From IMG/VR virus record IMGVR_UViG_3300037493_001250: DNA of 64,000 nucleotides. One strand, written 5' to 3'. Position numbers and translations under genes: made by a program. The notes below the pieces were generated by a model. It ran no database searches and was not told the DNA's origin. It saw nothing but the letters and a program-made list of their open reading frames with translations. This document shows positions 16,092-60,301 of the stretch, piece by piece. The stretch's first letter is position 1. Each line of letters begins with the position of its first letter. The stretch comes from an uncultured virus (IMG/VR IMGVR_UViG_3300037493_001250) (Duplodnaviria > Heunggongvirae > Uroviricota > Caudoviricetes).

Positions 16092-16119
16092 AAAAGCCAA
16101 CTTAATCGTTGGCTTTTTT
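16092..16119. terminator. Bidirectional rho-independent terminator
   Basis: AAAAGCCAAC-TTAATC-GTTGGCTTTTTT between convergent genes. Confidence 0.8.
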
Positions 16120-16323
16120 GTTTTGTAGTTTAATAATTTCTTTGGTTACATCCCCACGTAACTTATTTGGGTTTGTGGTTATCTCAAGCCAAAAGTTATA
16201 ACAATAAATTAGAAAGTCTGAATCAGACATACCCATTTCGGATGCGTATGTTTTCATGGTCTGTTTAAATGTAGGTATAGTATATACCCTAATCTCTGCT
16301 TTTCTCTTTACTTTTTCCTGCAT
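16102..16323 (-). CDS. Small ribbon-helix-helix-like regulator
   Basis: AEIRVYT strand then helices (FKQTMKTYASEMGMSDSDFLI); own -7 element at 16369-16376 on the minus strand; start revised to the ATG at 16323. Confidence 0.5.
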   Translation of the reverse strand: MQEKVKRKAEIRVYTIPTFKQTMKTYASEMGMSDSDFLIYCYNFWLEITTNPNKLRGDVTKEIIKLQNKKAND

Positions 16324-16378
16324 AATACTTTTTGCGTATAGGATATGCGCACAATACTGATTACATAACAAATATACA

Positions 16379-38604: not shown

Positions 38605-38847
38605 TTAAGCGTCTATGTTTCTTTTCACTATCATCAAATCTGTCTCTTTCGTTTTGATACACGCCCTTGCAAGGCTGTTAAATTCACGAGCATTTGTAAT
38701 GTTATGGTATCGCATACGTTTCCATAGCTCAGATGATTGGTTAAAGAAAGGACTTTTCTCTTGCGTGTTTAAATCTAATATGTAATGGTTACTGCCGAGC
38801 TCGCACTGAATCAATGCGAACTCGGTTGTCTTGCGTTTAAGTTTCAT
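38605..38847 (-). CDS. Hypothetical protein
   Basis: ORF in the minus-strand early cluster, coupled by ATGA. Confidence 0.55.
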   Translation of the reverse strand: MKLKRKTTEFALIQCELGSNHYILDLNTQEKSPFFNQSSELWKRMRYHNITNAREFNSLARACIKTKETDLMIVKRNIDA

Positions 38848-38996
38848 CTTTCTTTTATCTGCTCTTTAATATTTTTACCTATCTCCTCTGCTGTGTATAC
38901 CTTATCAGGCATAACAGTCTTTACCTTAAGTTTTAATTCAGATGCGATGCTTTCTTTAGCACGTCTTATCTGTTCCATGGTTGCGTTTCCGTACAT
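38844..38996 (-). CDS. Hypothetical protein (50 aa)
   Basis: Read by hand: MYGNATMEQIRRAKE...; TGA overlaps the next ATG. Confidence 0.5.
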   Translation of the reverse strand: MYGNATMEQIRRAKESIASELKLKVKTVMPDKVYTAEEIGKNIKEQIKER

Positions 38997-39139
38997 AGTT
39001 GTTTAATTAACGGTGAATATGAAATAGTAAAATAAAAAAAAGCATATTGCCCAACATACCATAACGGTAAGGTTAAAGACAGAAGCTACAATCTTGCGTA
39101 GCCTCTGCCTAAAAGTTGGAGGATGTTGTATTCTGGTCC

Positions 39140-39349
39140 TCATATCTGACTGAATTGTGCTAGTGCATTGTAATCTTCTAGCAGATGGTTGATAAAATCA
39201 AAGCCAAGGTGTAACTGCTTTGCAAAGTTAATAACGTCATACTTAGCGTATAGCATTACCTCCTTATCAAACTCTTCCCTTACATAGCCTTGTAAGGCTG
39301 TTACTCTTAGAATGTTTAATTCTGTGTTGATTGTCTCGAAGTCTGTCAT
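39140..39349 (-). CDS. Hypothetical protein
   Basis: A-rich leader; early cluster. Confidence 0.55.
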   Translation of the reverse strand: MTDFETINTELNILRVTALQGYVREEFDKEVMLYAKYDVINFAKQLHLGFDFINHLLEDYNALAQFSQI

Positions 39350-39440
39350 AATTGTTTTGTTTTAATCGTTTGTTAATTTATTGAACACCCACACTATTAT
39401 TCTGAATAAGTGGGCAAGTGCTAATAGATAGAACATGGTG

Positions 39441-39653
39441 TTATGGTGTTATAGTTCTATACCCGTTCTTGTCCGTTACCTTGTCAAGCACCTTGATTGT
39501 TAACTCTTGCTGATGCTGTATCTCCTTTTGCAAATAAATAACGGTCTCTAAATGTACTTTACATTGCACGTATTGCACGATATTACCCAAGATGAGTAAA
39601 ACTACCACTAAGGCACATAAGTGCGTTAGAATTGATTTAATTGATTCTTTCAT
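39441..39653 (-). CDS. Small membrane-anchored protein
   Basis: TM LCALVVVLLILGNIV; start revised to MKESIK. Confidence 0.55.
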   Translation of the reverse strand: MKESIKSILTHLCALVVVLLILGNIVQYVQCKVHLETVIYLQKEIQHQQELTIKVLDKVTDKNGYRTITP

Positions 39654-39657
39654 AGTA

Positions 39658-40083
39658 TTAATAGATTTTAGATATAACTTCATCGTAAACGAATTGGTTA
39701 TCGTTGTTTAATAATTCAAGCTCGTACTCTGTCATCTCACGCCCAAAATATGTGGCTCGTGAAATATACGCATCGCAGTAGTCTGGTGCATCTCTATGGT
39801 CTATGTCATCTACTTCGGTGTGTGATATTTGCGAGTAGTCAAGTTCTACTTTGTCTTCTTGTGGTACAAAGCATTCAGATAAACGAAGCGTAAGAAATGA
39901 ATCGGTTGATGATTCATTGATGACACCTAAAAAGTCTATAGCTTCAAGTAATGTTAAGTCAACCCAATGGTGTTTGTTACCAAGCACTTGAATCGACTTT
40001 TCACAAAGTGTAGGATAGGTTGGGGTGTTTGCAAGCATAAGATATGCCTTGTCATGTTTTAATCTTTCTAATAATGTTTTCAT
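39658..40083 (-). CDS. Hypothetical protein (apparently two domains)
   Basis: Start revised to MKTLLER after an AACAACAAC leader; acidic C-terminal domain IDHRDAPDYCDAYIS. Confidence 0.65.
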   Translation of the reverse strand: MKTLLERLKHDKAYLMLANTPTYPTLCEKSIQVLGNKHHWVDLTLLEAIDFLGVINESSTDSFLTLRLSECFVPQEDKVELDYSQISHTEVDDIDHRDAPDYCDAYISRATYFGREMTEYELELLNNDNQFVYDEVISKIY

Positions 40084-40094
40084 GTTGTTGTTGT

Positions 40095-40229
40095 TTAGTT
40101 TTCTGTGAATGAGTCCTCGCAACAAGGTGATGCGGGTTCTTTGTGTGGTTGATTACTGTACTCGCCACCCGTTTCAATAAATACTGGGACATCAAACTCG
40201 TGTCCGCAATTGTCACACGTAAATTCCAT
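40095..40229 (-). CDS. Small zinc-ribbon protein (44 aa)
   Basis: Read by hand: MEFTCDNCGHEFD...SPCCED. Confidence 0.55.
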   Translation of the reverse strand: MEFTCDNCGHEFDVPVFIETGGEYSNQPHKEPASPCCEDSFTEN

Positions 40230-40234
40230 AGGTA

Positions 40235-40435
40235 TTAGTTTTGGGTTATGTACTCTATGCTATACACCGTTTCAGATGTTTCATGTTGTACGGTTAAAAA
40301 TGTTTCTGTTTGCTCTGTTTTAAGCGTGAACCTTTTGAATAGGTCATTCATAGTTGTAAGGTAGTTAACGCATTCTGCGTAAACATCAGATGTGTACATA
40401 CTATAATTGTCGGGGTACTTTACTACTGCGTACAT
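40235..40435 (-). CDS. Hypothetical protein
   Basis: Tightly packed early cluster. Confidence 0.55.
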   Translation of the reverse strand: MYAVVKYPDNYSMYTSDVYAECVNYLTTMNDLFKRFTLKTEQTETFLTVQHETSETVYSIEYITQN

Positions 40436-40439
40436 AATT

Positions 40440-41234
40440 TTATGATAGGTCTTTAAGTGTAATATTATTATCTCTGCACCACTCTATAGCTGTGCGTTCT
40501 GCCTCTTCATGGCATAAGGCTGCCTCACCTAATCCCATATCATCGGATGATATAAGCGTTTCATAAATACGATGGATTAAGTCTTCGAATTGTAACTCTG
40601 TAATTTGTGTCATAATTATTGATTGTAAAATTTCTAAACAAAGTTGTTCGGGTATTTTTGATCTTTCATAACTACCCTTTTTACCTTGTGTACCAGTTTG
40701 ACTACCCCTTGGAGCAGGTTGGTGATGGCAATTTTTATTACCATTGTGACAGATTGGTCTTGGTATCCATTCTTGGCTATTAGTCCAAATATCTGTAGGC
40801 TTTGCTCTGTTGTCACCATATTGGCAATACCATACTGTGTGCCTTTTAAACTCTTGCATGAAAGGCATTTTACGAAGCATACCCCTTGGATTTTCAATAA
40901 AGTATACCATATTAGGATTAATCAACAGCCAATCATTAATAACACTTATAAAGTGTTGGTTTACGTTGTCGCATTTTTTAGCGTAATCACTTTTTGGCTC
41001 AGTGCCATTGCGGTGCGTGCTTATGGCTGCAACGGTGTATGTGGTACAATCAGGAGATGCCCAAACAAAGTCAGGCACGAATGGCACATCACTTGTTTTT
41101 AATTCGCCAATATCAATAGCTAAATCAATGCCTTCAAAGTTTTGCCAATCAACTGAAAACACATTGTATTTGAGTTGTTCTGCTAATTTACCAATGGATC
41201 TGCTACCTGCAAATAGTTCTAATACGTTTTTCAT
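40440..41234 (-). CDS. DNA cytosine-5 methyltransferase with an in-frame C-terminal appendage
   Basis: VLELFAGS (motif I), WASPDCT (catalytic), FIENP, KPTDIW; internal AATAATT-ATG at 40613. Confidence 0.8.
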   Translation of the reverse strand: MKNVLELFAGSRSIGKLAEQLKYNVFSVDWQNFEGIDLAIDIGELKTSDVPFVPDFVWASPDCTTYTVAAISTHRNGTEPKSDYAKKCDNVNQHFISVINDWLLINPNMVYFIENPRGMLRKMPFMQEFKRHTVWYCQYGDNRAKPTDIWTNSQEWIPRPICHNGNKNCHHQPAPRGSQTGTQGKKGSYERSKIPEQLCLEILQSIIMTQITELQFEDLIHRIYETLISSDDMGLGEAALCHEEAERTAIEWCRDNNITLKDLS

Positions 41235-41243
41235 TTGTATTAA

Positions 41244-41447
41244 TTATTTAATGCGTGTGTATCTTTCTGATGAGGTATCCCATTCGTCACCTACATCGCA
41301 GTTCTCTGCCCAGGATAGTAACGTGTCACCATCATCGTTTATCTCTACATCATCAGAGTCATCTTGCGGTAAGCCCGCAAATTCAAATACGGCTTTGTAG
41401 CCACGACCTGATTTGTCAATCCAAAAATATTGTCTTTCGTCTTGCAT
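41244..41447 (-). CDS. Hypothetical acidic protein
   Basis: Early cluster ORF. Confidence 0.55.
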   Translation of the reverse strand: MQDERQYFWIDKSGRGYKAVFEFAGLPQDDSDDVEINDDGDTLLSWAENCDVGDEWDTSSERYTRIK

Positions 41448-41451
41448 AGTT

Positions 41452-41652
41452 TTATAATTTATTAATGTTACATTCTTCTATTTTAGTAAGGTAGTAGTCA
41501 TACCATTGGTTGAATCTTTCTTGTATTTCATCGGTGTAATTCTCACCATCATACATTTCATCTTCATTGTTGCATATGTCACCTGAGTCATAAAGTGTTC
41601 TATCATGTGCAAGTTCAGATGCTAATTCGATTGCGTTGATTGTAATATTCAT
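41452..41652 (-). CDS. Hypothetical acidic protein
   Basis: INAIELASELAH...FNQWYDYY. Confidence 0.6.
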   Translation of the reverse strand: MNITINAIELASELAHDRTLYDSGDICNNEDEMYDGENYTDEIQERFNQWYDYYLTKIEECNINKL

Positions 41653-41656
41653 AATG

Positions 41657-41878
41657 TTATTTATTAGTTGTTGTGTGCTTTAATCTATTTACTCCCGCTA
41701 ACCTTGCATTTACCTTTTCTATTACTTCTTCGTAGCTTTCTTGTACTTCAAAGTATCCATTGTTATTCCACCCGACTACGCAAGTTTGGTCTTTATCGTC
41801 AACAAATACTCTTTTTAATTCGTTGATGTTGCCAATAAATCTTTTACCTTTTAGGTCTGTTAATTCAATAAAGTTCAT
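41657..41878 (-). CDS. Hypothetical protein (FlbD-like small beta fold)
   Basis: MNFIELT...INE...EVQESYEEVIEKV pattern; start revised. Confidence 0.5.
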   Translation of the reverse strand: MNFIELTDLKGKRFIGNINELKRVFVDDKDQTCVVGWNNNGYFEVQESYEEVIEKVNARLAGVNRLKHTTTNK

Positions 41879-41900
41879 AATGTTGTTTGTTAAGGGTTGT

Positions 41901-42428
41901 TTATTTTTTATATCTTTTAAAGGTATTAATAATTTGTTCTGATATAACATCAAAAAGATTGCTATCAGTTACATCTATATGATGATATTTTAATTCGTAA
42001 GCAAACCCAGGCTTGCTTAAGCCTTGAATTCTTTTAATATTTGCGTGTATAGATTTAACATAAAAATCAATTGATACTTCACCATCTGAAACCGTGTTAT
42101 CTTTAAATTGAGGAAAGATAATTTTGAAATCACGAGTGCTTGTGTATGCTCCATTTGTTAAACTACCATTACTATACTTGAAGTTTAAGCCAAGGCTATC
42201 CGTTAATTCTTTAACTTGACTGCATAAGTCAGCAAATAAAGCATTGTTGGCAATCTCGTAGGCTTCGGTCATCGTCTTGAACTCGGAAACCTCATCGTCA
42301 AATGCTTTTAACTCACCCATAATTTTGCGAGCTAATGCATTTGGGGATGTGTCTGTAAACTTAGAATTAAATGATTCAAAGTTTGATGTAATTGAATTAA
42401 TTACTGATTGTTGAGTGCTTGTAATCAT
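41901..42428 (-). CDS. Hypothetical protein
   Basis: Start revised to MITSTQQ after an AATAACAAC leader. Confidence 0.6.
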   Translation of the reverse strand: MITSTQQSVINSITSNFESFNSKFTDTSPNALARKIMGELKAFDDEVSEFKTMTEAYEIANNALFADLCSQVKELTDSLGLNFKYSNGSLTNGAYTSTRDFKIIFPQFKDNTVSDGEVSIDFYVKSIHANIKRIQGLSKPGFAYELKYHHIDVTDSNLFDVISEQIINTFKRYKK

Positions 42429-42459
42429 GTTGTTATTTATTAATTGTTGTTTAAATTGA

Positions 42460-42633
42460 TTAATATATGAAGTCGGGGAAATCACATGGCTCGCTTGTAA
42501 AAGAGCAATGTGGGCAAGTTATTTCTTCTTGTTTAAGCTTGTGTAGTAATACATCACCGCATACCCCACAATTTACTATGTTTACTCCGCTATCTAGCAC
42601 GAGTTTCATTAGTTCTTTTTGATTTGTGTCCAT
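42460..42633 (-). CDS. Small zinc-finger protein
   Basis: CGVCG...CPHC; start revised to MDTNQKE. Confidence 0.6.
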   Translation of the reverse strand: MDTNQKELMKLVLDSGVNIVNCGVCGDVLLHKLKQEEITCPHCSFTSEPCDFPDFIY

Positions 42634-42634
42634 G

Positions 42635-42925
42635 TTATAATTGGTTGTAAGTTGTTGTTTTACCATCAAATGTAATCTCGGTTACTTGTGCAAGGTTAAT
42701 CATACGATAACCTTCTGCATCGGTTGACCATACTACTTTAAGTCCTTTCTCTTTAGGCTCAAAAGCCAAACCTTTACCATTTACACCTTTGCTTACGCCA
42801 GTTCTGCACGTCATTTTGCGTAGTGTGCCATCCTTTTTGATAAATTTAATCGTAAAAAATTTACCATTTGTGCGGTCAATATCTTGTGATAGTGAACGAA
42901 TGAATAATTCTTGAGTTGCTTCCAT
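42635..42925 (-). CDS. SH3-like beta-barrel phage protein
   Basis: GKFFTIKFIKKDGTLRKM...GYRMINL motif. Confidence 0.6.
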   Translation of the reverse strand: MEATQELFIRSLSQDIDRTNGKFFTIKFIKKDGTLRKMTCRTGVSKGVNGKGLAFEPKEKGLKVVWSTDAEGYRMINLAQVTEITFDGKTTTYNQL

Positions 42926-42929
42926 TGTT

Positions 42930-43190
42930 TTAAATATTACAATTATTAATTATTGATTTTAAGTTATTTGTTGGTGACCCTTCTATTAAAATCTTTAAAT
43001 GTTCTAAATTACTTTCACCTCCATCAAATACTCCATTGTAAGTTAGCCAATAAGATAACAAGTCGAAATCATTCCATTGTATTAATTCATGGTAATGCTT
43101 ATCGTATGATTTATCAGATAATTGCATTGAATCTATTTCAGCCATTTCAGATGCTAAAAATTGTTTAAATTTTATTGAGTTTGTTTTCAT
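42930..43190 (-). CDS. Hypothetical protein
   Basis: Early cluster ORF with an AACAAC leader. Confidence 0.55.
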   Translation of the reverse strand: MKTNSIKFKQFLASEMAEIDSMQLSDKSYDKHYHELIQWNDFDLLSYWLTYNGVFDGGESNLEHLKILIEGSPTNNLKSIINNCNI

Positions 43191-43194
43191 GTTG

Positions 43195-43401
43195 TTAATA
43201 TTCGATTTGATTTATTAATATTTCTTGCCAATGAATTGGTAGGTCGGTGCAAGGTAATACTTCCTCATTACCTCTGCAATCTTCTTCAGCCTCTTCTTTA
43301 ATTCCAAAGATTATAATTCTACCATAAGAATCTTGTAACACGTTGTCATTGGCTCTATCGTATATAACGTAGTCCGTGTTAAATAATTTTTTAGTTTTCA
43401 T
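43195..43401 (-). CDS. Hypothetical protein
   Basis: Early cluster ORF with an AACAAC leader. Confidence 0.55.
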   Translation of the reverse strand: MKTKKLFNTDYVIYDRANDNVLQDSYGRIIIFGIKEEAEEDCRGNEEVLPCTDLPIHWQEILINQIEY

Positions 43402-43405
43402 GTTG

Positions 43406-44119
43406 TTAATTATTAATTTGTATTACGAAATTTGTATCATCTTTCTTGCCTCTACCTTTAGCAGTCAAGCCTACAATAACGTTGGTAGGGTCAAGGTAGC
43501 GTAGGTCATTGATGTCACCATTGATAACTGGATAACCTAAGTATGTATCAGGCAATTGATTGAATACTACGGCAACATTACCGCCTAACTCTAAGAACTT
43601 GCGACACTCAGCGTCATTGGTCTCGGATCGTGAGAATGTAAGACTATACTTGCTGTCAAGGTAAACAATGGCACGCTTGTAATTCTTAGTGTAATCGTAG
43701 AACGTAAGGTGCGTGAACTCTGTGAGTATATCTTTGTCAATCTTAAGTTTGAATAGCATGATAAAGTCAAGGTCAGATGTACCATTGAGGCGAATAGCTA
43801 TGCTACGATTGTCAAGCATACCTTCTGCATTGATAAGGTATAACTCACGATACAATTGTGTAAGAAAGCCTACGGTATCTGAGAAAAACCAGTCTGTCTT
43901 ACGTTGACGAGCAGCCTGCACATTACTAAACTTGCCCATACCTGCGGTATTGAGACAAGCAGCTGCACATCCTGCGGATGCATGACCGCATACATTCTTA
44001 CCGAATGAATTAAGTTTGTGTGGTGATAGATGCAAGATATACGACTCTGCGATATCTTGGCTTTTAGCAGTCTTAACATTGTTACTGCCATGTGTGAGTA
44101 GTTGCTTTTTAAACTTCAT
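43406..44119 (-). CDS. GP88-like protein (radical-SAM-related, Cys cluster)
   Basis: VCGHASAGCAAACL, IRLNGTSD, FYDYTK, LTFSRSE and INGDINDLRYLD motifs. Confidence 0.75.
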   Translation of the reverse strand: MKFKKQLLTHGSNNVKTAKSQDIAESYILHLSPHKLNSFGKNVCGHASAGCAAACLNTAGMGKFSNVQAARQRKTDWFFSDTVGFLTQLYRELYLINAEGMLDNRSIAIRLNGTSDLDFIMLFKLKIDKDILTEFTHLTFYDYTKNYKRAIVYLDSKYSLTFSRSETNDAECRKFLELGGNVAVVFNQLPDTYLGYPVINGDINDLRYLDPTNVIVGLTAKGRGKKDDTNFVIQINN

Positions 44120-44129
44120 GATATTATTA

Positions 44130-44975
44130 TTAATATGGTACTTGATTGTATTGGTAGTATTCTTTCTCTGCTAACCATTGCTCGTTAATCTCATCTTCGA
44201 TAGCCTCTGTTATCTTTATGAAATCAATCGATCCTATCGTATAGCTTGTGTTGTCTATTAAGTCTAAGAAATCACTGCTATTCTTGTTAATGCCTGTCAT
44301 GTCTTGTATGTAATCTATGTTATCTTTGCTTACATTAGAAAAGTATGCTAAGTATTGCTTGAGTTCTGTATTGGATATCTTATTCTCAAAAGGCTCATAC
44401 TCATACGCAGTCTTGCTTACTTTCTCGTTACCATAGTAATAGAAATCTAAGTCATACTTGTAACTATCGTTACTATACCAATCACCATTATCCCATAGAC
44501 CTAAACTCTCGTTAACAATAACGTGGTCATCATTGCTATCTAAGAATAACAACTTGCTACTACCAATAGTCTTTGTAATAAACTCAAGAGTCGTAGCACA
44601 TTGCAAGAACTCATGCTTGAACTTTTTAAGCATCTCGTTGAATTGGTATGTGTCGCTATGTTGTTGGTTACCTAAGCCGCTAATTATACCATTGTGTACG
44701 AAGCCCAGGCTATCGCTTGTAAAGAACGGATGCAAGTTAGTATACTTTTCGTGTCCGCTTGTGGCTATTCTAAAGTGTAGAACTATTTTGCCGTCAATCA
44801 TTGCACGTACTTTGTAGTACTCGTCAATGAATAGTTGCTTATCATATGTTTTAAAGGCAGTCAGTACACCATTAAGATTGTACAATAAGCCTGCACCTTG
44901 GTTGTTGTTCTCCCATGAATTGTTTAGTACTTCTAAAGATAATGGGTTTGTTGTGTTTAGTATTGCAATACACAT
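44130..44975 (-). CDS. Class II glutamine amidotransferase domain protein
   Basis: N-terminal MCIAI (catalytic Cys), LHFRIATSG, LHPF, VHNGII, SDT. Confidence 0.85.
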   Translation of the reverse strand: MCIAILNTTNPLSLEVLNNSWENNNQGAGLLYNLNGVLTAFKTYDKQLFIDEYYKVRAMIDGKIVLHFRIATSGHEKYTNLHPFFTSDSLGFVHNGIISGLGNQQHSDTYQFNEMLKKFKHEFLQCATTLEFITKTIGSSKLLFLDSNDDHVIVNESLGLWDNGDWYSNDSYKYDLDFYYYGNEKVSKTAYEYEPFENKISNTELKQYLAYFSNVSKDNIDYIQDMTGINKNSSDFLDLIDNTSYTIGSIDFIKITEAIEDEINEQWLAEKEYYQYNQVPY

Positions 44976-44986
44976 AATTGTTTTTA

Positions 44987-46267
44987 TTAATTGTTATTTT
45001 CGTTTACGTTTATATTCTCGAACTTAAGGCTGAATTTAATTAATCTATCCATAAGTACGTTATACTTATCTTTAGGATACATTTCCATAAGTAACTCACG
45101 CAATGGGCTTGTATTGGCATTAAAGAAAGCCTCTTTTACACATGATGTCTTGTGAGTAACAATAAATTCTATCAACCTTGCACGCCAGTGTAGTGTAGTA
45201 ACATTGGGTACGGCTGATACAATTCTGTACTCTATACGATTGCTATGTATCTTGATAGCCTGATACTTCTCGTTAGATTCTTTGAGGTCATTATTATTCT
45301 TACCCTTGCAGTATGTTTTATCAACACGCTTGTAGTATAGTGCATAGAATAGTGGTGTATAACCTTTGAGTTCGTCAAACAATTCATCGCCTGTCTTACC
45401 TGCCTCGCTTAGGTTGATATGTCCGCCACATGACTTGCTAATACTCGCATTGATATGAGCAACAATAGTTTTGTTAGACATAATATGCTCGTGTATCTTG
45501 TCGGGTATCAGCTCGAACTTAGGACTTATGAGTTCGTAACCGCTTTGATCATCAAGGCTACCGTCACGCTCTTTTTTCCAAGATGGGCAAACATCCTCGA
45601 ACTCGTCAATGAATATACTTTCTTTTACGTTTGAATCTTCTTTCTCTATCTCAAAGCCAACATAGAATTTAGGGTCATCCGTAAAATTAACCTCGTGTAA
45701 TCGTCCGCTATGGTAATCTCGTGTGTATTCAATAACTTCTTCTTCTTCTTCGTAATGGTATTCTCCGTCATTCTCCCAATAGTAAGCATTATCAATATGT
45801 TCAATACAACCATCACACATTATAACAAGGTCAAAGTCTTCAAGGTTTACGTACCAATCACCATCATATTTGTAAGCGTTATACCTTGCTGCATCAACAG
45901 ACCATCTCTCGGATACTCTGCGAGTAACCCATACTTCAACCGTTTCTTGCTCTATCCAAACATCATTACGCTCACAATAATAAGCATCATTAGTGTGCAA
46001 AACAATATCTGTATCGTCTGAAATCACATAGGTTTCTACATCATAATAGAAACCATCACGCTCAAGCACATCAACATCATTGATGATATCACATAAATCA
46101 ACATTGTGATCTTGCGTTGATATACGTATTTTGTCAACACTTGTGTTGTCATGTTCTTTTAAGAACTCTAAAAATACTTTTGGCTCGACATCATTACTGC
46201 GAGCAAGAGAGATAATCTCACGTAGTACGGGAATGCTATAGGTTAGCATTGTTGTTGTTGATTCCAT
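44987..46267 (-). CDS. Putative amidoligase (COOH-NH2 ligase superfamily) with an acidic N-terminal region
   Basis: GFEIEKE, ERDGSL, YELISP, SCGGHIN, KYQAI and RIEYR motifs; next to the GATase-II. Confidence 0.75.
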   Translation of the reverse strand: MESTTTMLTYSIPVLREIISLARSNDVEPKVFLEFLKEHDNTSVDKIRISTQDHNVDLCDIINDVDVLERDGFYYDVETYVISDDTDIVLHTNDAYYCERNDVWIEQETVEVWVTRRVSERWSVDAARYNAYKYDGDWYVNLEDFDLVIMCDGCIEHIDNAYYWENDGEYHYEEEEEVIEYTRDYHSGRLHEVNFTDDPKFYVGFEIEKEDSNVKESIFIDEFEDVCPSWKKERDGSLDDQSGYELISPKFELIPDKIHEHIMSNKTIVAHINASISKSCGGHINLSEAGKTGDELFDELKGYTPLFYALYYKRVDKTYCKGKNNNDLKESNEKYQAIKIHSNRIEYRIVSAVPNVTTLHWRARLIEFIVTHKTSCVKEAFFNANTSPLRELLMEMYPKDKYNVLMDRLIKFSLKFENINVNENNN

Positions 46268-46271
46268 AATT

Positions 46272-46412
46272 TTAGTTGTTTAATTTTTTAGTTAATACTT
46301 TAGTTTTGTTGTATTGACTAGCAATACCTTTAGCCTGTTGTTGGCTAGTTGTTGTGTAAATTAATGCCCAAAGATTGAATCGCCCTTGTGCATAGACATA
46401 GTACGTTTTCAT
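46272..46412 (-). CDS. Hypothetical protein (46 aa)
   Basis: Read by hand: MKTYYVYAQGRFNLW... Confidence 0.5.
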   Translation of the reverse strand: MKTYYVYAQGRFNLWALIYTTTSQQQAKGIASQYNKTKVLTKKLNN

Positions 46413-46431
46413 TTTTTTAAGTTGTTAATAA

Positions 46432-46515
46432 TTATTTTACGATATGTTCAGCGAAATAAGCCAGCGCATACACAATGATGGCAGCACATAGCAGTTCTTT
46501 TTTAGTTAGTTTCAT
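46432..46515 (-). CDS. Small membrane peptide (27 aa)
   Basis: Read by hand: MKLTKKELLCAAIIVYALAYFAEHIVK; A/C-rich leader. Confidence 0.45.
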   Translation of the reverse strand: MKLTKKELLCAAIIVYALAYFAEHIVK

Positions 46516-46524
46516 AATTGTATT

Positions 46525-47205
46525 GGTTGTTTAGTGGATGTGGATATTGTCGGTTAATCCATTGCACGCATTTAACGACATTGCGCACCCATTACCCTTC
46601 GTATTTCAACTTGCACACTAGATTGGGTCACTTAAGCAAGTTATAACATATATACACACGCTCACATTTAAGCGTGTATAGTTGAATAGATAAAAGTTGT
46701 ATTGATTTTTAAACGCATAATTGCGTTAGCATTATTAGTCCATCCCGTTAATCGTACCGATACTCTCGCATTGCGCCTATTAACCCTGCTTTATGGACAC
46801 ACTACATAACTAATAGCAGTGGGGAAACCGTAAGTTTGCCAAATTGCGAAAATAACAAGACACATATTGCTTGTATTAATACGGCTTATTGTGTTTCACG
46901 TATATGAATACTACACACACAATATTTTTAGTAATATACATAAATTGCATATTACATAGCATTGCTATAAAAATAGATATAATTGCATAGCATAGCTACA
47001 TACAAAAATACTAATTTATAAACTTGTCAAAGTACGAAACAAAATAATAAGCACGGCTTAATTATATTTTGCCCTAAAATACATACAGTTTGCACGGCAT
47101 TGACTGTATATAAGTTTGAAAACTGCAAATATTCGATATTTGCGCACCTCTATTTGCAAGGCACTAAGCAGTTTTATATGTGTCTAATAAATTGGACACA
47201 TTCCT
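46525..47205 (-). ncRNA. Candidate large structured non-coding RNA (~680 nt), family not recognised
   Basis: No ORF of 60 aa or more; more than ten nested helices seen by eye; strand assigned from the flanking genes. Confidence 0.55.
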
Positions 47206-47210
47206 GGTTT

Positions 47211-47588
47211 TTACTTGCTTATGCTATAAAGATATTGCAAAAGGTAAAAAGGTGAGTAATTACCTTTTTTAGACTTACGGCAGTTATTAACGGCAAGTTT
47301 GTATGCTTCGCTATCTTTGTTGATAGCTTGCAAGTTTTTAACCATAAGAGGCGAAAGTTTAAGTATGTTGGTATTGTTTATTAATACCTTAATACAATAA
47401 CCCAAAGTTTTACTCTCTTGCTTTAAAATTGCGTTACTATCTAATACTTGTAACTTGTAGTTACTTTCTTTCTTAGTAACTTCAATTTTACTGCTTACTT
47501 GCTTTAAGTTGTTAGCAGTTGCTTTGGTTGGTTTGTTGTTTGCAATGTTAGCACCTTGTGCCTTAGTTGCTTTCTTGTTGTTTTTCAT
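47211..47588 (-). CDS. Basic protein, first gene of the early-type operon
   Basis: K/N-rich, 125 aa, directly downstream of the promoter at 47629-47658. Confidence 0.7.
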   Translation of the reverse strand: MKNNKKATKAQGANIANNKPTKATANNLKQVSSKIEVTKKESNYKLQVLDSNAILKQESKTLGYCIKVLINNTNILKLSPLMVKNLQAINKDSEAYKLAVNNCRKSKKGNYSPFYLLQYLYSISK

Positions 47589-47628
47589 GTTATGTATATA
47601 TGTATGTGTTGTGTCTTATTGACGGGGA

Positions 47629-49366: not shown

Positions 49367-49493
49367 CAGTCAGAATCCGATTCGAACGGATACCTATTAT
49401 TGGATTTCTCCTAAGTATGAGGTGTGCTTACGATTATAGTTTCAAATCTTTATCACTCCATCCTATAGCGTCTACCATTTCCGCCACCTGACT
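49367..49493 (-). ncRNA. tRNA-like RNA with an expanded centre (no canonical anticodon loop)
   Basis: Acceptor AGTCAGG/TCTGACT, D-arm GGCGGAAATGGTAGACGC, T-arm ATCCG-TTCGAAT-CGGAT; 127 nt. Confidence 0.7.
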
Positions 49494-49586
49494 GTATTTA
49501 ATTAATAGGCATTAATGTACTATGTTGGGACTTAACCTCACTTCTTCCATATATTTACTACTTTATCTCCTATTAATTAAAATGTT

Positions 49587-50713: not shown

Positions 50714-50786
50714 GTCGGGGGCAGGAAGTCGAATCCCATCTTTACCACCTAATGCGGTATGTGCTGCCGTTAACACTACTACCCGA
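50714..50786 (-). tRNA. Degenerate tRNA / pseudo-tRNA; anticodon-position triplet TTA
   Basis: D-arm GTGT-TAACGGCA-GCAC, stem TACCG/TGGTA with loop CATTAGG, T-arm TGGGA-TTCGACT-TCCTG; imperfect acceptor stem; own promoter at 50796-50807. Confidence 0.55.
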
Positions 50787-50815
50787 TATTTTATGCAAAT
50801 GTAATACTTGTAATA

Positions 50816-52136: not shown

Positions 52137-52475
52137 TTACAAATTTAACGATTTTTTTCTATTTTCTTTAGCCCATTCTGCACAAAATGCGTATATGTCA
52201 AATATATCTTCTCCGAAAGACATTGCAAACATATTAAAATGCCCTAGGTTAACAGTCCTATGGTGCAGGCTTACCTCTAAGTTCCGTACAAAACATCTGC
52301 TAAACCTTACATCATACTCATCGTTTATCTTTTTTATCCACCCTGATATAGACATACCATTAGTGTGTATCCTGTCTCTAAGGTACGCAGCAAGGGCAGG
52401 ATAGGCATAGTCTTCACCAAGAATAAAGCTTTTACGGGCCTCAATAGTCTTCTTATTAAATTGTAACCTACTCAT
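52137..52475 (-). CDS. Possible HTH DNA-binding protein
   Basis: LAAYLRDRI..GMSISGW....FSRCFVRNLE pattern resembles an Xre-type HTH. Confidence 0.4.
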   Translation of the reverse strand: MSRLQFNKKTIEARKSFILGEDYAYPALAAYLRDRIHTNGMSISGWIKKINDEYDVRFSRCFVRNLEVSLHHRTVNLGHFNMFAMSFGEDIFDIYAFCAEWAKENRKKSLNL

Positions 52476-52968
52476 ACATAACGCTAAATTCTGTCTTTAT
52501 AGCTTCATAAAGTATATGGTAAGTATCCTTCATGTTCTTATCAACATCAATTAAGTCGTTAATCTTGTTGATTCCAGAGATAACTGTTGAATGGTCTCTA
52601 CTAAAATATTTGCCTATCCTAAGCTTTGTATGCTTGAACTCCTTGTTTGCTATCTTGTAAATTAATGCACGCTTCTCAGGCAATCTGTTAGCCCTTGATT
52701 TTGACATTAATAACTCCTTAGAGGTTTGTAAAACTTCACAAGCCTTGTTTGTTACATCATCTATTGATACAAGATAGTCATTAGTAATTAATTGTTGCTT
52801 ATATTTTAAGCTAGTGCCTGAAATGTCAATAACCATCTTACCATGAACTCCCTTAACGTAGCTCTTCAATAGCATGATGTCACTCTCAGAAAGATTAAAA
52901 AATACTTCTATGTTCTTAATGTGGTAGTTTAATGGCTTCGTCTGCGATATTATCTCCGTTTGATTCAT
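52468..52968 (-). CDS. Protein with a DnaA C-terminal (domain IV) HTH
   Basis: LMSKSR...RALIY...IGKYFSRDHSTVISGINKI; start revised to MNQTE. Confidence 0.8.
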   Translation of the reverse strand: MNQTEIISQTKPLNYHIKNIEVFFNLSESDIMLLKSYVKGVHGKMVIDISGTSLKYKQQLITNDYLVSIDDVTNKACEVLQTSKELLMSKSRANRLPEKRALIYKIANKEFKHTKLRIGKYFSRDHSTVISGINKINDLIDVDKNMKDTYHILYEAIKTEFSVMYE

Positions 52969-53179
52969 CTGTTGTTGTCTCCTCTGTTTTAAATTTAATA
53001 GCATCCTGCAATGCTAACTTATCTGTGTTACTGAACTTTTCGTTCTTCATAGCCTCTAAATCTTCAAGAGGTAGTTGCTTGAACTCTTCTAGCCTAGTGG
53101 TATACCTAAGTCTTATTTTTGGGTTAACCTGGCCCTTGATAAACATCTTAGCCATGTTTCTTCTTTGTGTTCTGTTCAT
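52916..53179 (-). CDS. Hypothetical protein
   Basis: MNRTQRR N-terminus common in phage proteins. Confidence 0.6.
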   Translation of the reverse strand: MNRTQRRNMAKMFIKGQVNPKIRLRYTTRLEEFKQLPLEDLEAMKNEKFSNTDKLALQDAIKFKTEETTTDESNGDNIADEAIKLPH

Positions 53180-59502: not shown

Positions 59503-59604
59503 AGTTTTGTTGTTATTTCAATTACAAATGTAATACAAAAATAAATAAATACAAATATTATTTTTTTTACTTGCTATTTATAAAAAAGGTATTACTTTTG
59601 TCAT

Positions 59605-59680
59605 CGTGAATTAGTTGTTGATTCAGTTAAGTTGTTTTCATGGTTTAATACCCCTGCCTAGTGTGGGGGTATTATTTTTT
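59605..59680 (+). ncRNA. Candidate small regulatory RNA (5' hairpin, single-stranded seed, terminator)
   Basis: Promoter GTATTACTTTTG (59589-59600), no ORF, hairpin TGAATTAG/TTGATTCA, terminator TAATACCCC...GGGGTATTA-TTTTTT. Confidence 0.6.
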
Positions 59681-59721
59681 AAAAATAAATTTGCATAATT
59701 AAAAATCCATATTATATTTGC

Positions 59722-59827
59722 CTCGTTGATACGGTCAAGTGTACAACGGGTATCTAAAGACATTGCTTCTTTACAGAGGCAAAAACCATAAAACAACCCG
59801 CAAGCCCTTGACCCTTGTGGGTTTTTT
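59722..59827 (+). ncRNA. Three-hairpin leader / attenuator with complementary loops
   Basis: Promoter TATATTTG at 59713-59720; loop GGTCAAG (59733-59739) is complementary to terminator loop CTTGACC (59807-59813). Confidence 0.6.
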
Positions 59828-59829
59828 AT

Positions 59830-60245
59830 GACCTATTAACATAAGGATAGCAACCATCGAGTGTATGTTCCGAGCGGGGACGCATCTTGACAAAAACAAG
59901 TAAAAATATTTCTTTTAAATAAAATGCAAGGCTGTATGACACCTTCCTGCTTTTAGCCATTCGACTGACGAACTCATTGACGAGTACTAGTGGTAAGAGG
60001 TAGTCAAACTTCCTTTAGGGGGTAGGGGGTTTGACACCTTTTTCTTACCTTCTCCTTTCGGAATCTTTTTCGGAGTACTAATCGCTGGCGAAGAGTACAT
60101 ATGCTTGAAGTCCTTACCATGTAAACAATCGAGGAAGCCGCAGATTGTTGGATTAGAATAAACGTAGGCGTAAGCAATCTCATGGCGAAAGCAAAAAAAA
60201 AAAGAAAAAGTAAGAGGATACCCACTAGCAATGTTTGTTGCCTGA
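59830..60245 (+). other. Structured non-coding region (ncRNA or replication origin)
   Basis: Long hairpin GGTAAGA..GTCAAACTTCCT/AGGGGGTTTGAC..TCTTACC, several other helices, long-range CTAGTGG/CCACTAG. Confidence 0.5.
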
Positions 60246-60252
60246 AAATAAA

Positions 60253-60284
60253 TTTGCATATTACAATATAACGTATTACATTTG
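60253..60284 (+). promoter_or_regulatory. Full Bacteroidetes promoter (-33 TTTG, -7 TACATTTG)
   Basis: TTTG-N20-TACATTTG. Confidence 0.75.
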
Positions 60285-60301
60285 TATAAATAATAAATAA
60301 C

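Follow-up and report, generated by a model that had tools for sequence, protein, structure and literature searches.

A predicted small RNA of an uncultured Bacteroidota-type phage, with a conserved seed antisense to start codons and a candidate role in damping early genes

The stretch of DNA analysed here (64 kb, the window from now on) represents most of a phage genome, and within its replication region lies a short unit that is very probably a real, conserved phage sRNA gene. The RNA likely acts by pairing over start codons, and its best reading, held with moderate confidence, is a middle-phase phage sRNA that would damp the phage's own early genes. In the proposed mechanism, a trans-acting RNA of ~75 nt would start from a host sigma-A promoter belonging to the class found with phage replication-region genes, and its U/G-rich open middle would bind many mRNAs simultaneously, each over the AUG and codons 2–4 (target consensus about C-AUG-RAA-RCA-AC). 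Pairing would block ribosome loading, in the manner of GibS and FopS in Bacteroides, and the handle for repression would be, as in Bacteroides, the start-codon region and not the Shine-Dalgarno site. The targets would be mainly genes of the phage's own early operon, with early protein synthesis damped once the middle phase begins. Blocking of start codons is itself already known from GibS/FopS; in the literature searched, no sRNA of a Bacteroidota phage had been characterised, and 'Bacteroid', 'Flavobacter', 'start codon', and 'early genes' appear nowhere in the text of a 2025 review of phage sRNAs.

Genome setting and anatomy of the unit

The genes of the window include terminase, portal, a crAss-type muzzle protein, primase/helicase, resolvase, and DNA methyltransferase, and the TAnnTTTG promoters together with the A-rich leaders point to a Bacteroidota host. 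The terminase had no match among isolate phages. Other features of the replication region are a minus-strand gene (52468–53004) whose product (178 aa) carries the C-terminal helix-turn-helix domain of DnaA (PF08299, E 1e-10), and two minus-strand stretches that look tRNA-like by eye (~49370–49495 and 50720–50790, one of them with a long insertion), with neither an ARAGORN call nor an Rfam match. All the features considered are given in Table 1.

Table 1. Gene blocks of the window and elements of the predicted sRNA unit and its neighbour.
Feature	Position	Strand	Remarks
Structural genes	61–37941 and 62302 on	+	Block label from layout
Presumed early operon	38605..47588	-	Label from layout: numerous small ORFs, all hypothetical, that follow a long non-coding stretch
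Replication region	48.6–62.2 kb		Block label from layout
Promoter, Bacteroidota sigma-A-type	59570..59600	+	-33 CTTG, -7 TACTTTTG within GTATTACNTTTG; kept in alignment of relatives
Predicted sRNA, ~75 nt, ORF-free	59606..59680	+	Homologs at 69.9–94.4 bits in 9/9 close relatives
5' hairpin, weak	59607..59625	+	Per-sequence folds; differs between relatives
Seed, single-stranded	59630..59645	+	Antisense to start codon and codons 2–4; core 59632–59645
Intrinsic terminator	59646..59680	+	12 pairs 59646–59674, T-run to 59680
Downstream promoter and structured leader with terminator	59713..59830	+	Fold z -5.0; other leader types in relatives

The earlier note on this DNA had described a promoter-terminator-bounded unit of ~75 nt without an ORF, and this was borne out when box, hairpins, terminator, and frames were checked. 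Its start at 59589 has to be moved, this coordinate belonging to the promoter box. As read from the sequence, the TAnnTTTG box lies at 59593–59600, 19 nt behind the CTTG at 59570–59573, and since the Bacteroidota box sits at -12 to -5 according to the text of PMC9723704, we infer transcription from 59605–59606. No contig spans 59604–59667 in four RNA runs (word shares 0.07–0.10, contigs only). The GTATTACNTTTG promoter class is present in 10 copies in the window, nine of them within 49.7–62.3 kb, that of the sRNA unit included, and is absent from the window before the early operon and before the structural genes. Such a distribution fits the middle-phase expression suggested in the earlier note, the promoter class being common to the replication region, while the term 'early' for the targets comes from gene layout.

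The only frames within the unit are M-V-stop on the plus strand and M-K-T-T-stop on the minus strand. The stretch 59606–59680 folds with a z of -3.05 (2/200 shuffles were equally good), and this signal stems mostly from the terminator. RNAalifold did not recover the 5' hairpin as a consensus helix. The single-stranded middle covers 59626–59645, and the seed core within it has an unpaired probability of 0.67–0.95 in seven folded variants. With an accessible, conserved seed in an ORF-free promoter-terminator unit, the predicted RNA has the anatomy of the general class of trans-acting base-pairing sRNAs. A second copy was absent from the 64-kb window, where the next best match (19.5 bits) covers the terminator only.

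Conservation among relatives and the neighbouring leader

Relatives were sought through the neighbouring 156-aa gene, so that the RNA itself did not select them. Eleven of 80 metagenome loci are close relatives (59–96% identity); two begin inside the neighbour gene, without upstream DNA, leaving nine for counting. The unit was found by model search in all nine, at the syntenic position, and although six of them had trained the model, L073, L074, and L077 had not. The core TTG(T)TTTTCATGGTT is identical in the window and in every one of the nine, save one extra T in 4/9, while the four-fold sites of the neighbour gene are identical at only 8/31 (L082), 20/37 (L080), and 22/39 (L079) positions. 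Conservation of the seed had been named in the earlier note as a check, and an invariant core amid such diverged neighbouring sites is the pattern of a putative seed under purifying selection. Other parts of the unit are more variable: the 5' hairpin and the terminator loop differ among relatives, and no reading frame is kept on the plus or the minus strand, on which ground we rejected both a minus-strand mini-ORF and a plus-strand peptide. The terminator is paired in 98.6% of cells over eight sequences, with one-sided changes only in this alignment and no two-sided covariation in the MAFFT alignment.

These data also bear on the idea that the unit does no more than insulate two divergent promoters by its terminator, or is what remains of a minus-strand gene start, with a functionless seed. 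The dominance of the terminator in the folding signal and the resemblance of the minus strand to a gene start would agree with it, but the seed is invariant at saturated neutral divergence, the minus-strand frames range from 4 to 14+ codons and are shifted by the T indel, and a dedicated conserved promoter aims into the unit, which makes this explanation quite improbable.

Near the distant homologs of the neighbour gene (89, with 27–42% identity) there was no unit above 19 bits in the 100/160 loci searched. The exact 20-nt seed was absent from the viral contigs searched, blastn against isolate phages yielded nothing better than E ~0.8 for this region, and phage phi38:1, which carries a distant homolog of gene 47588, has no such unit. 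The model search in five Bacteroidota genomes reached 35.8 bits at best, and promoter, seed, and terminator occurred together in none of the 20 matches inspected (of 24). In 121 Bacteroidota genomes a narrow pattern gave two matches against none for the scrambled control, numbers too small to carry weight.

The sRNA is followed by a second promoter with a structured leader (59713..59830), which adjoins it but is probably not part of its function. The seed could nevertheless be an antisense regulator of this leader and of the replication-type cassette, opening or blocking 59725–59830. The leader holds a 15/16 complement of the seed at ~59783–59798 (duplex -14.8), and unit and leader remain together on the inverted cassette of L074. 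Yet, set against the fold of the leader itself, the net gain is only about -2.3 kcal/mol, this leader type is limited to the window and 1/9 relatives, three other leaders pair at -9 to -10.6 though the seed is unchanged, and no large ORF follows the leader in the window. We consider such a regulator highly improbable, and pairing with the adjacent leader was rejected as the main role for its small net gain and the weaker fits to the other leaders.

The loop of the leader's 5' hairpin is complementary to the loop of the terminator hairpin (GGTCAAG/CTTGACC in the window), and the equivalents in L072, L073, L075, L076, L079, and L080 have AATGCAG/CTGCATT or GGGTACA/TGTACC. In most of the relatives an HTH replication-type gene follows the leader, which is exchangeable; in the window it has no Rfam match above threshold, and it has the appearance of an attenuator or pseudoknot family not yet described. 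Behind it, where relatives have a replication-type gene, the window has ~430 nt (59832–60260) without a convincing gene, closely similar in L077 and partly in L076, possibly an origin or a further non-coding RNA. The sRNA and the leader are flanked by two 14-nt promoter copies, identical and inverted relative to each other (59523–59536 and 60273–60286). The cassette of L074 (660–2990) that is inverted between the flanking genes, and on which the unit lies in that relative, also bears a His-tRNA-synthetase-like gene (Pfam PF13393).

Complementarity to gene starts of the phage and of the host

The four matches quoted in the earlier note are all exact: the unit contains complements of 11 nt at 43191 (gene 43190), 10 nt at 40084 (gene 40083), 9 nt at 43402 (gene 43401), and 8 nt at 47589 (gene 47588). 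Match length alone is no evidence, because there are well over 100 matches of at least 8 nt to the whole unit in the window, and the longest one for the seed region (12 nt, minus strand, 16260) lies inside a small ORF. This ORF (16102–16371, minus strand) lies between the portal gene and the structural gene after it and is served by a promoter of its own, and the match falls at an internal ATG. What goes beyond chance is the concentration of matches at the starts of one operon, CATGAAAA being found at the start of 4/19 early, 0/30 middle, 1/34 late, and 10/649 stand-in host genes (Fisher p 4e-4).

For the pairing energies we used the 22-nt open middle as query against these same 19 early, 30 middle, 34 late, and 649 host starts, the last from Flavobacterium and Chitinophagaceae segments with crude first-ATG gene calls that stand in for the actual host; the duplex energies leave out mRNA structure. 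Mean energies were -10.8 kcal/mol for early, -9.0 for middle, -7.8 for late, and -8.0 for stand-in host starts, early starts pairing better than late (p 5e-4) and stand-in host starts (p 7e-5) in a test run on the same genome that suggested the idea. Four other seeds of the family, variants from the relatives, show early preference in the same direction. The gap of -3.0 was reached by none of 200 shuffles keeping the CAU, and the starts of the window were fitted best by its own seed (11.8%, against 0–8.6%) among 12 phage seeds. The best host match (-23.6) was a site picked by our own pattern scan, and its locus was dropped from later tests.

The claim that the single-stranded middle is antisense to start sites stood up, given the open seed in the folds and the preferential pairing with early-operon starts. 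The best predicted targets in the early operon are the starts at 42925, 43190, 41447, 46267, 47588, 40083, 44119, and 46515, and the best duplexes reach -13 to -17 kcal/mol. Thirteen of the 19 early starts score -10.9 or better, because their codons 2–4 are of the RAA-RCA-AC type, which the U/G-rich seed reads with wobble pairs; the other six are no better than background. The predicted targets are not confined to AUGAAAA, as had been supposed, G-U pairs admitting starts such as AUG GAA GCA ACU (42925). The two strongest starts in the window are not early (middle gene 60302, -16.9; late gene 33078, -16.8), and this, together with duplexes of -13 to -17, makes a 'shut-off' of early mRNAs probably too strong a term, although the preference for early starts agrees with the direction of the proposal. 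Pairing in vivo and repression, like transcription and its timing, are inferences. No dedicated site seems conserved at the first early gene, because the 46 homologs of gene 47588 do not agree in their N-termini (MNTT in 12, MKNN in 11, MNTK in 5, MKKT in 4, MKTT in 2, and others in 12). An escape of leaderless genes, also put forward earlier, would be marginal: about 5/83 starts look leaderless, and one of these (49967) begins ATGAAAC.

The main rival is a FopS-like sRNA directed chiefly against host mRNAs that encode secreted and outer-membrane proteins, with M-K-K/T/N signal peptides or SusC-type transporters (possible phage receptors) as targets and superinfection exclusion or the freeing of ribosomes as outcome; the matches to early genes would come from a strong start context that these genes have in common with the host mRNAs. 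The text of PMC11697453 gives SusC homologs and glycoside hydrolases as FopS targets. ATGAAAA starts are found in 59/321 and 46/338 stand-in host genes (14–18%), and these genes are enriched for signal-like N-termini (odds ratio 6–7). Among 120 listed matches with perfect 16-nt complements in GTDB there are 55 start-like ORFs, 33 with hydrophobic N-termini, but no host family recurs by eye among the perfect matches listed. Moreover, the mean pairing of host starts does not exceed that of late genes, the advantage of signal-like host genes over the others is just 0.3–0.8 kcal/mol (p 0.03–0.24), and none of 138 pseudo-seeds taken from host ATGAAA starts reached the -3.0 gap, that is, they lack the early-gene preference of this seed. 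A mainly host-directed role appears rather unlikely on balance, and damping of the phage's own early genes remains our preferred reading.

Known start-codon-blocking RNAs and similar units in other phages

The nearest parallels are GibS and FopS. GibS and the 14 FopS RNAs of B. thetaiotaomicron, described in PMC7366714 and PMC11697453, bear an anti-AUGAAAA core in their 5' consensus, and FopS-10 blocks translation at SusC start regions, as shown with compensatory mutations (PMC11697453). Our unit shares with FopS (RF04319) and GibS (RF04182) the sigma-A promoter, the short ORF-free RNA, the intrinsic terminator, the predicted pairing over start codons of several mRNAs, and the seed core TTTTCATGGT, of which 10 nt are identical in the window and 13 nt in L074 and L075, the relatives with five Ts. 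R1 of FopS, a 5' stretch in the wording of that paper, is an anti-AUGAAAA seed core, and the unit has one as well. On the other hand, the FopS/GibS seed is placed at the single-stranded 5' end, whereas here it is mid-molecule, ~25 nt in, behind a hairpin; FopS has a conserved 3'-extended R1' after the seed, which in our unit runs straight into the terminator; and GibS is ~145 nt long with two seeds (R1 and R2), against ~75 nt. FopS has 12–15 copies per genome, the unit a single one in the window. Known FopS/GibS targets belong to the Bacteroides host, while the targets predicted here are the phage's own early genes.

Rfam models of FopS and GibS gave no match for the window (E<=10) or for L074, L082, and L028 (E<=0.5), the FopS threshold being 56 bits, while 4/4 Bacteroides FopS controls scored 71.7–78.8 bits. 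The unit would therefore work like FopS without being a member, sharing the core but lacking a match to the family model, and the sequences would agree with shared ancestry as well as with convergence on a start context in common use. The only Rfam match over the unit, to the Aggregatibacter sRNA JA04 (RF02732, 31.8 bits), is far below the gathering score of 81 and reflects a generic U-rich-plus-terminator shape. The genuine FopS seed also prefers the early starts, more weakly (p 6e-3 against host), so that part of the early-start signal is probably generic. FopS is not foreign to phages: a FopS sequence is present in a tailed phage according to the text of PMC11697453, and the Rfam model finds a copy in the record of Bacteroides phage BX-TP2 (78.9 bits).

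The likeness to FopS leads to a further explanation, a decoy that titrates an RbpB-like host RNA-binding protein, or mimics FopS-type RNAs, instead of pairing with phage mRNAs. FopS was the top RbpB CLIP motif, in single-stranded regions. However, this motif has 41 nt and the unit only its 10–13 nt core, and a decoy leaves the early-start preference unexplained; we consider it improbable.

Early mRNAs are lowered in T4 through a shared feature of their initiation regions, by the translational repressor RegA and the endonuclease RegB. These are proteins acting in a Shine-Dalgarno-using host, while damping by the unit would be exerted by an RNA reading the start codon and codons 2–4. Another trans-acting sRNA of a mobile element, conserved across its group, is SviR of the PLE satellite, which lowers the translation of phage mRNAs (text of bioRxiv 10.1101/2022.04.08.487710); differently from our unit, it is satellite-encoded and aimed at the helper phage in Vibrio.

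Units of comparable design seem to occur in other phages. Thirty-two viral contigs matched a pattern that joins the seed to a G/C-rich terminator, against one for a permuted seed, a contrast that overstates the class because the matches collapse to 16 clusters, gene starts are included (at least two, L484 and L493, are minus-strand gene starts), and the background 9-mer ratio is 51:7. In five clusters a TAnnTTTG box precedes the seed by 7–47 nt, several clusters follow immediately on the stop codon of a gene, and none of 15 pattern units tested matches the FopS model. When 12 seeds were crossed with whole records, own-gene excess was found in the window, G128/G137, and G129, with little or none elsewhere. 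The seeds of G128/G137 and G129 fit 13.5–16% of their own starts against a host level of 5%, and G128/G137 starts fit several foreign seeds too. The remaining 8/12 seeds (G130–G136 and G001), with little or no own-gene excess, would rather favour host targets, though five of these records are fragments of 10–12 kb.

More speculatively, and with doubts outweighing our confidence, Bacteroidota phages may repeatedly have evolved or captured anti-AUG sRNAs as a timing device, a middle-phase RNA reading the AUG RAA RCA AC code that early genes would share and lowering the whole early program. If true, this would be an RNA counterpart of the protein repressors of early genes, suited to hosts without Shine-Dalgarno initiation, and the units of the phage groups G128/G137 and G129 would add more independent cases. 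Confirmation of the damping role would carry the start-codon seed of GibS/FopS beyond the metabolism of gut Bacteroides into the developmental program of the phage itself, would indicate that N-terminal codons can serve as a regulatory address, and would provide a compact repressor for Bacteroidota genetics.

Some peculiarities of the other phages can be added. A C at position -1 is found in none of 52, 48, and 50 starts of G128, G129, and G137 (seed CATAG) and in 21/93 starts of the window (seed CATGG); its lack in those three may reflect low GC. An unrelated phage group (L028/L473 and L465) has a promoter, a hairpin, two tandem anti-ATG seeds, and a terminator beside divergent genes. Finally, in a 251-kb phage record (G133:C1) three to four units of seed and terminator, nearly identical to one another, fall within 3 kb (~157,290–160,350), multicopy like FopS.
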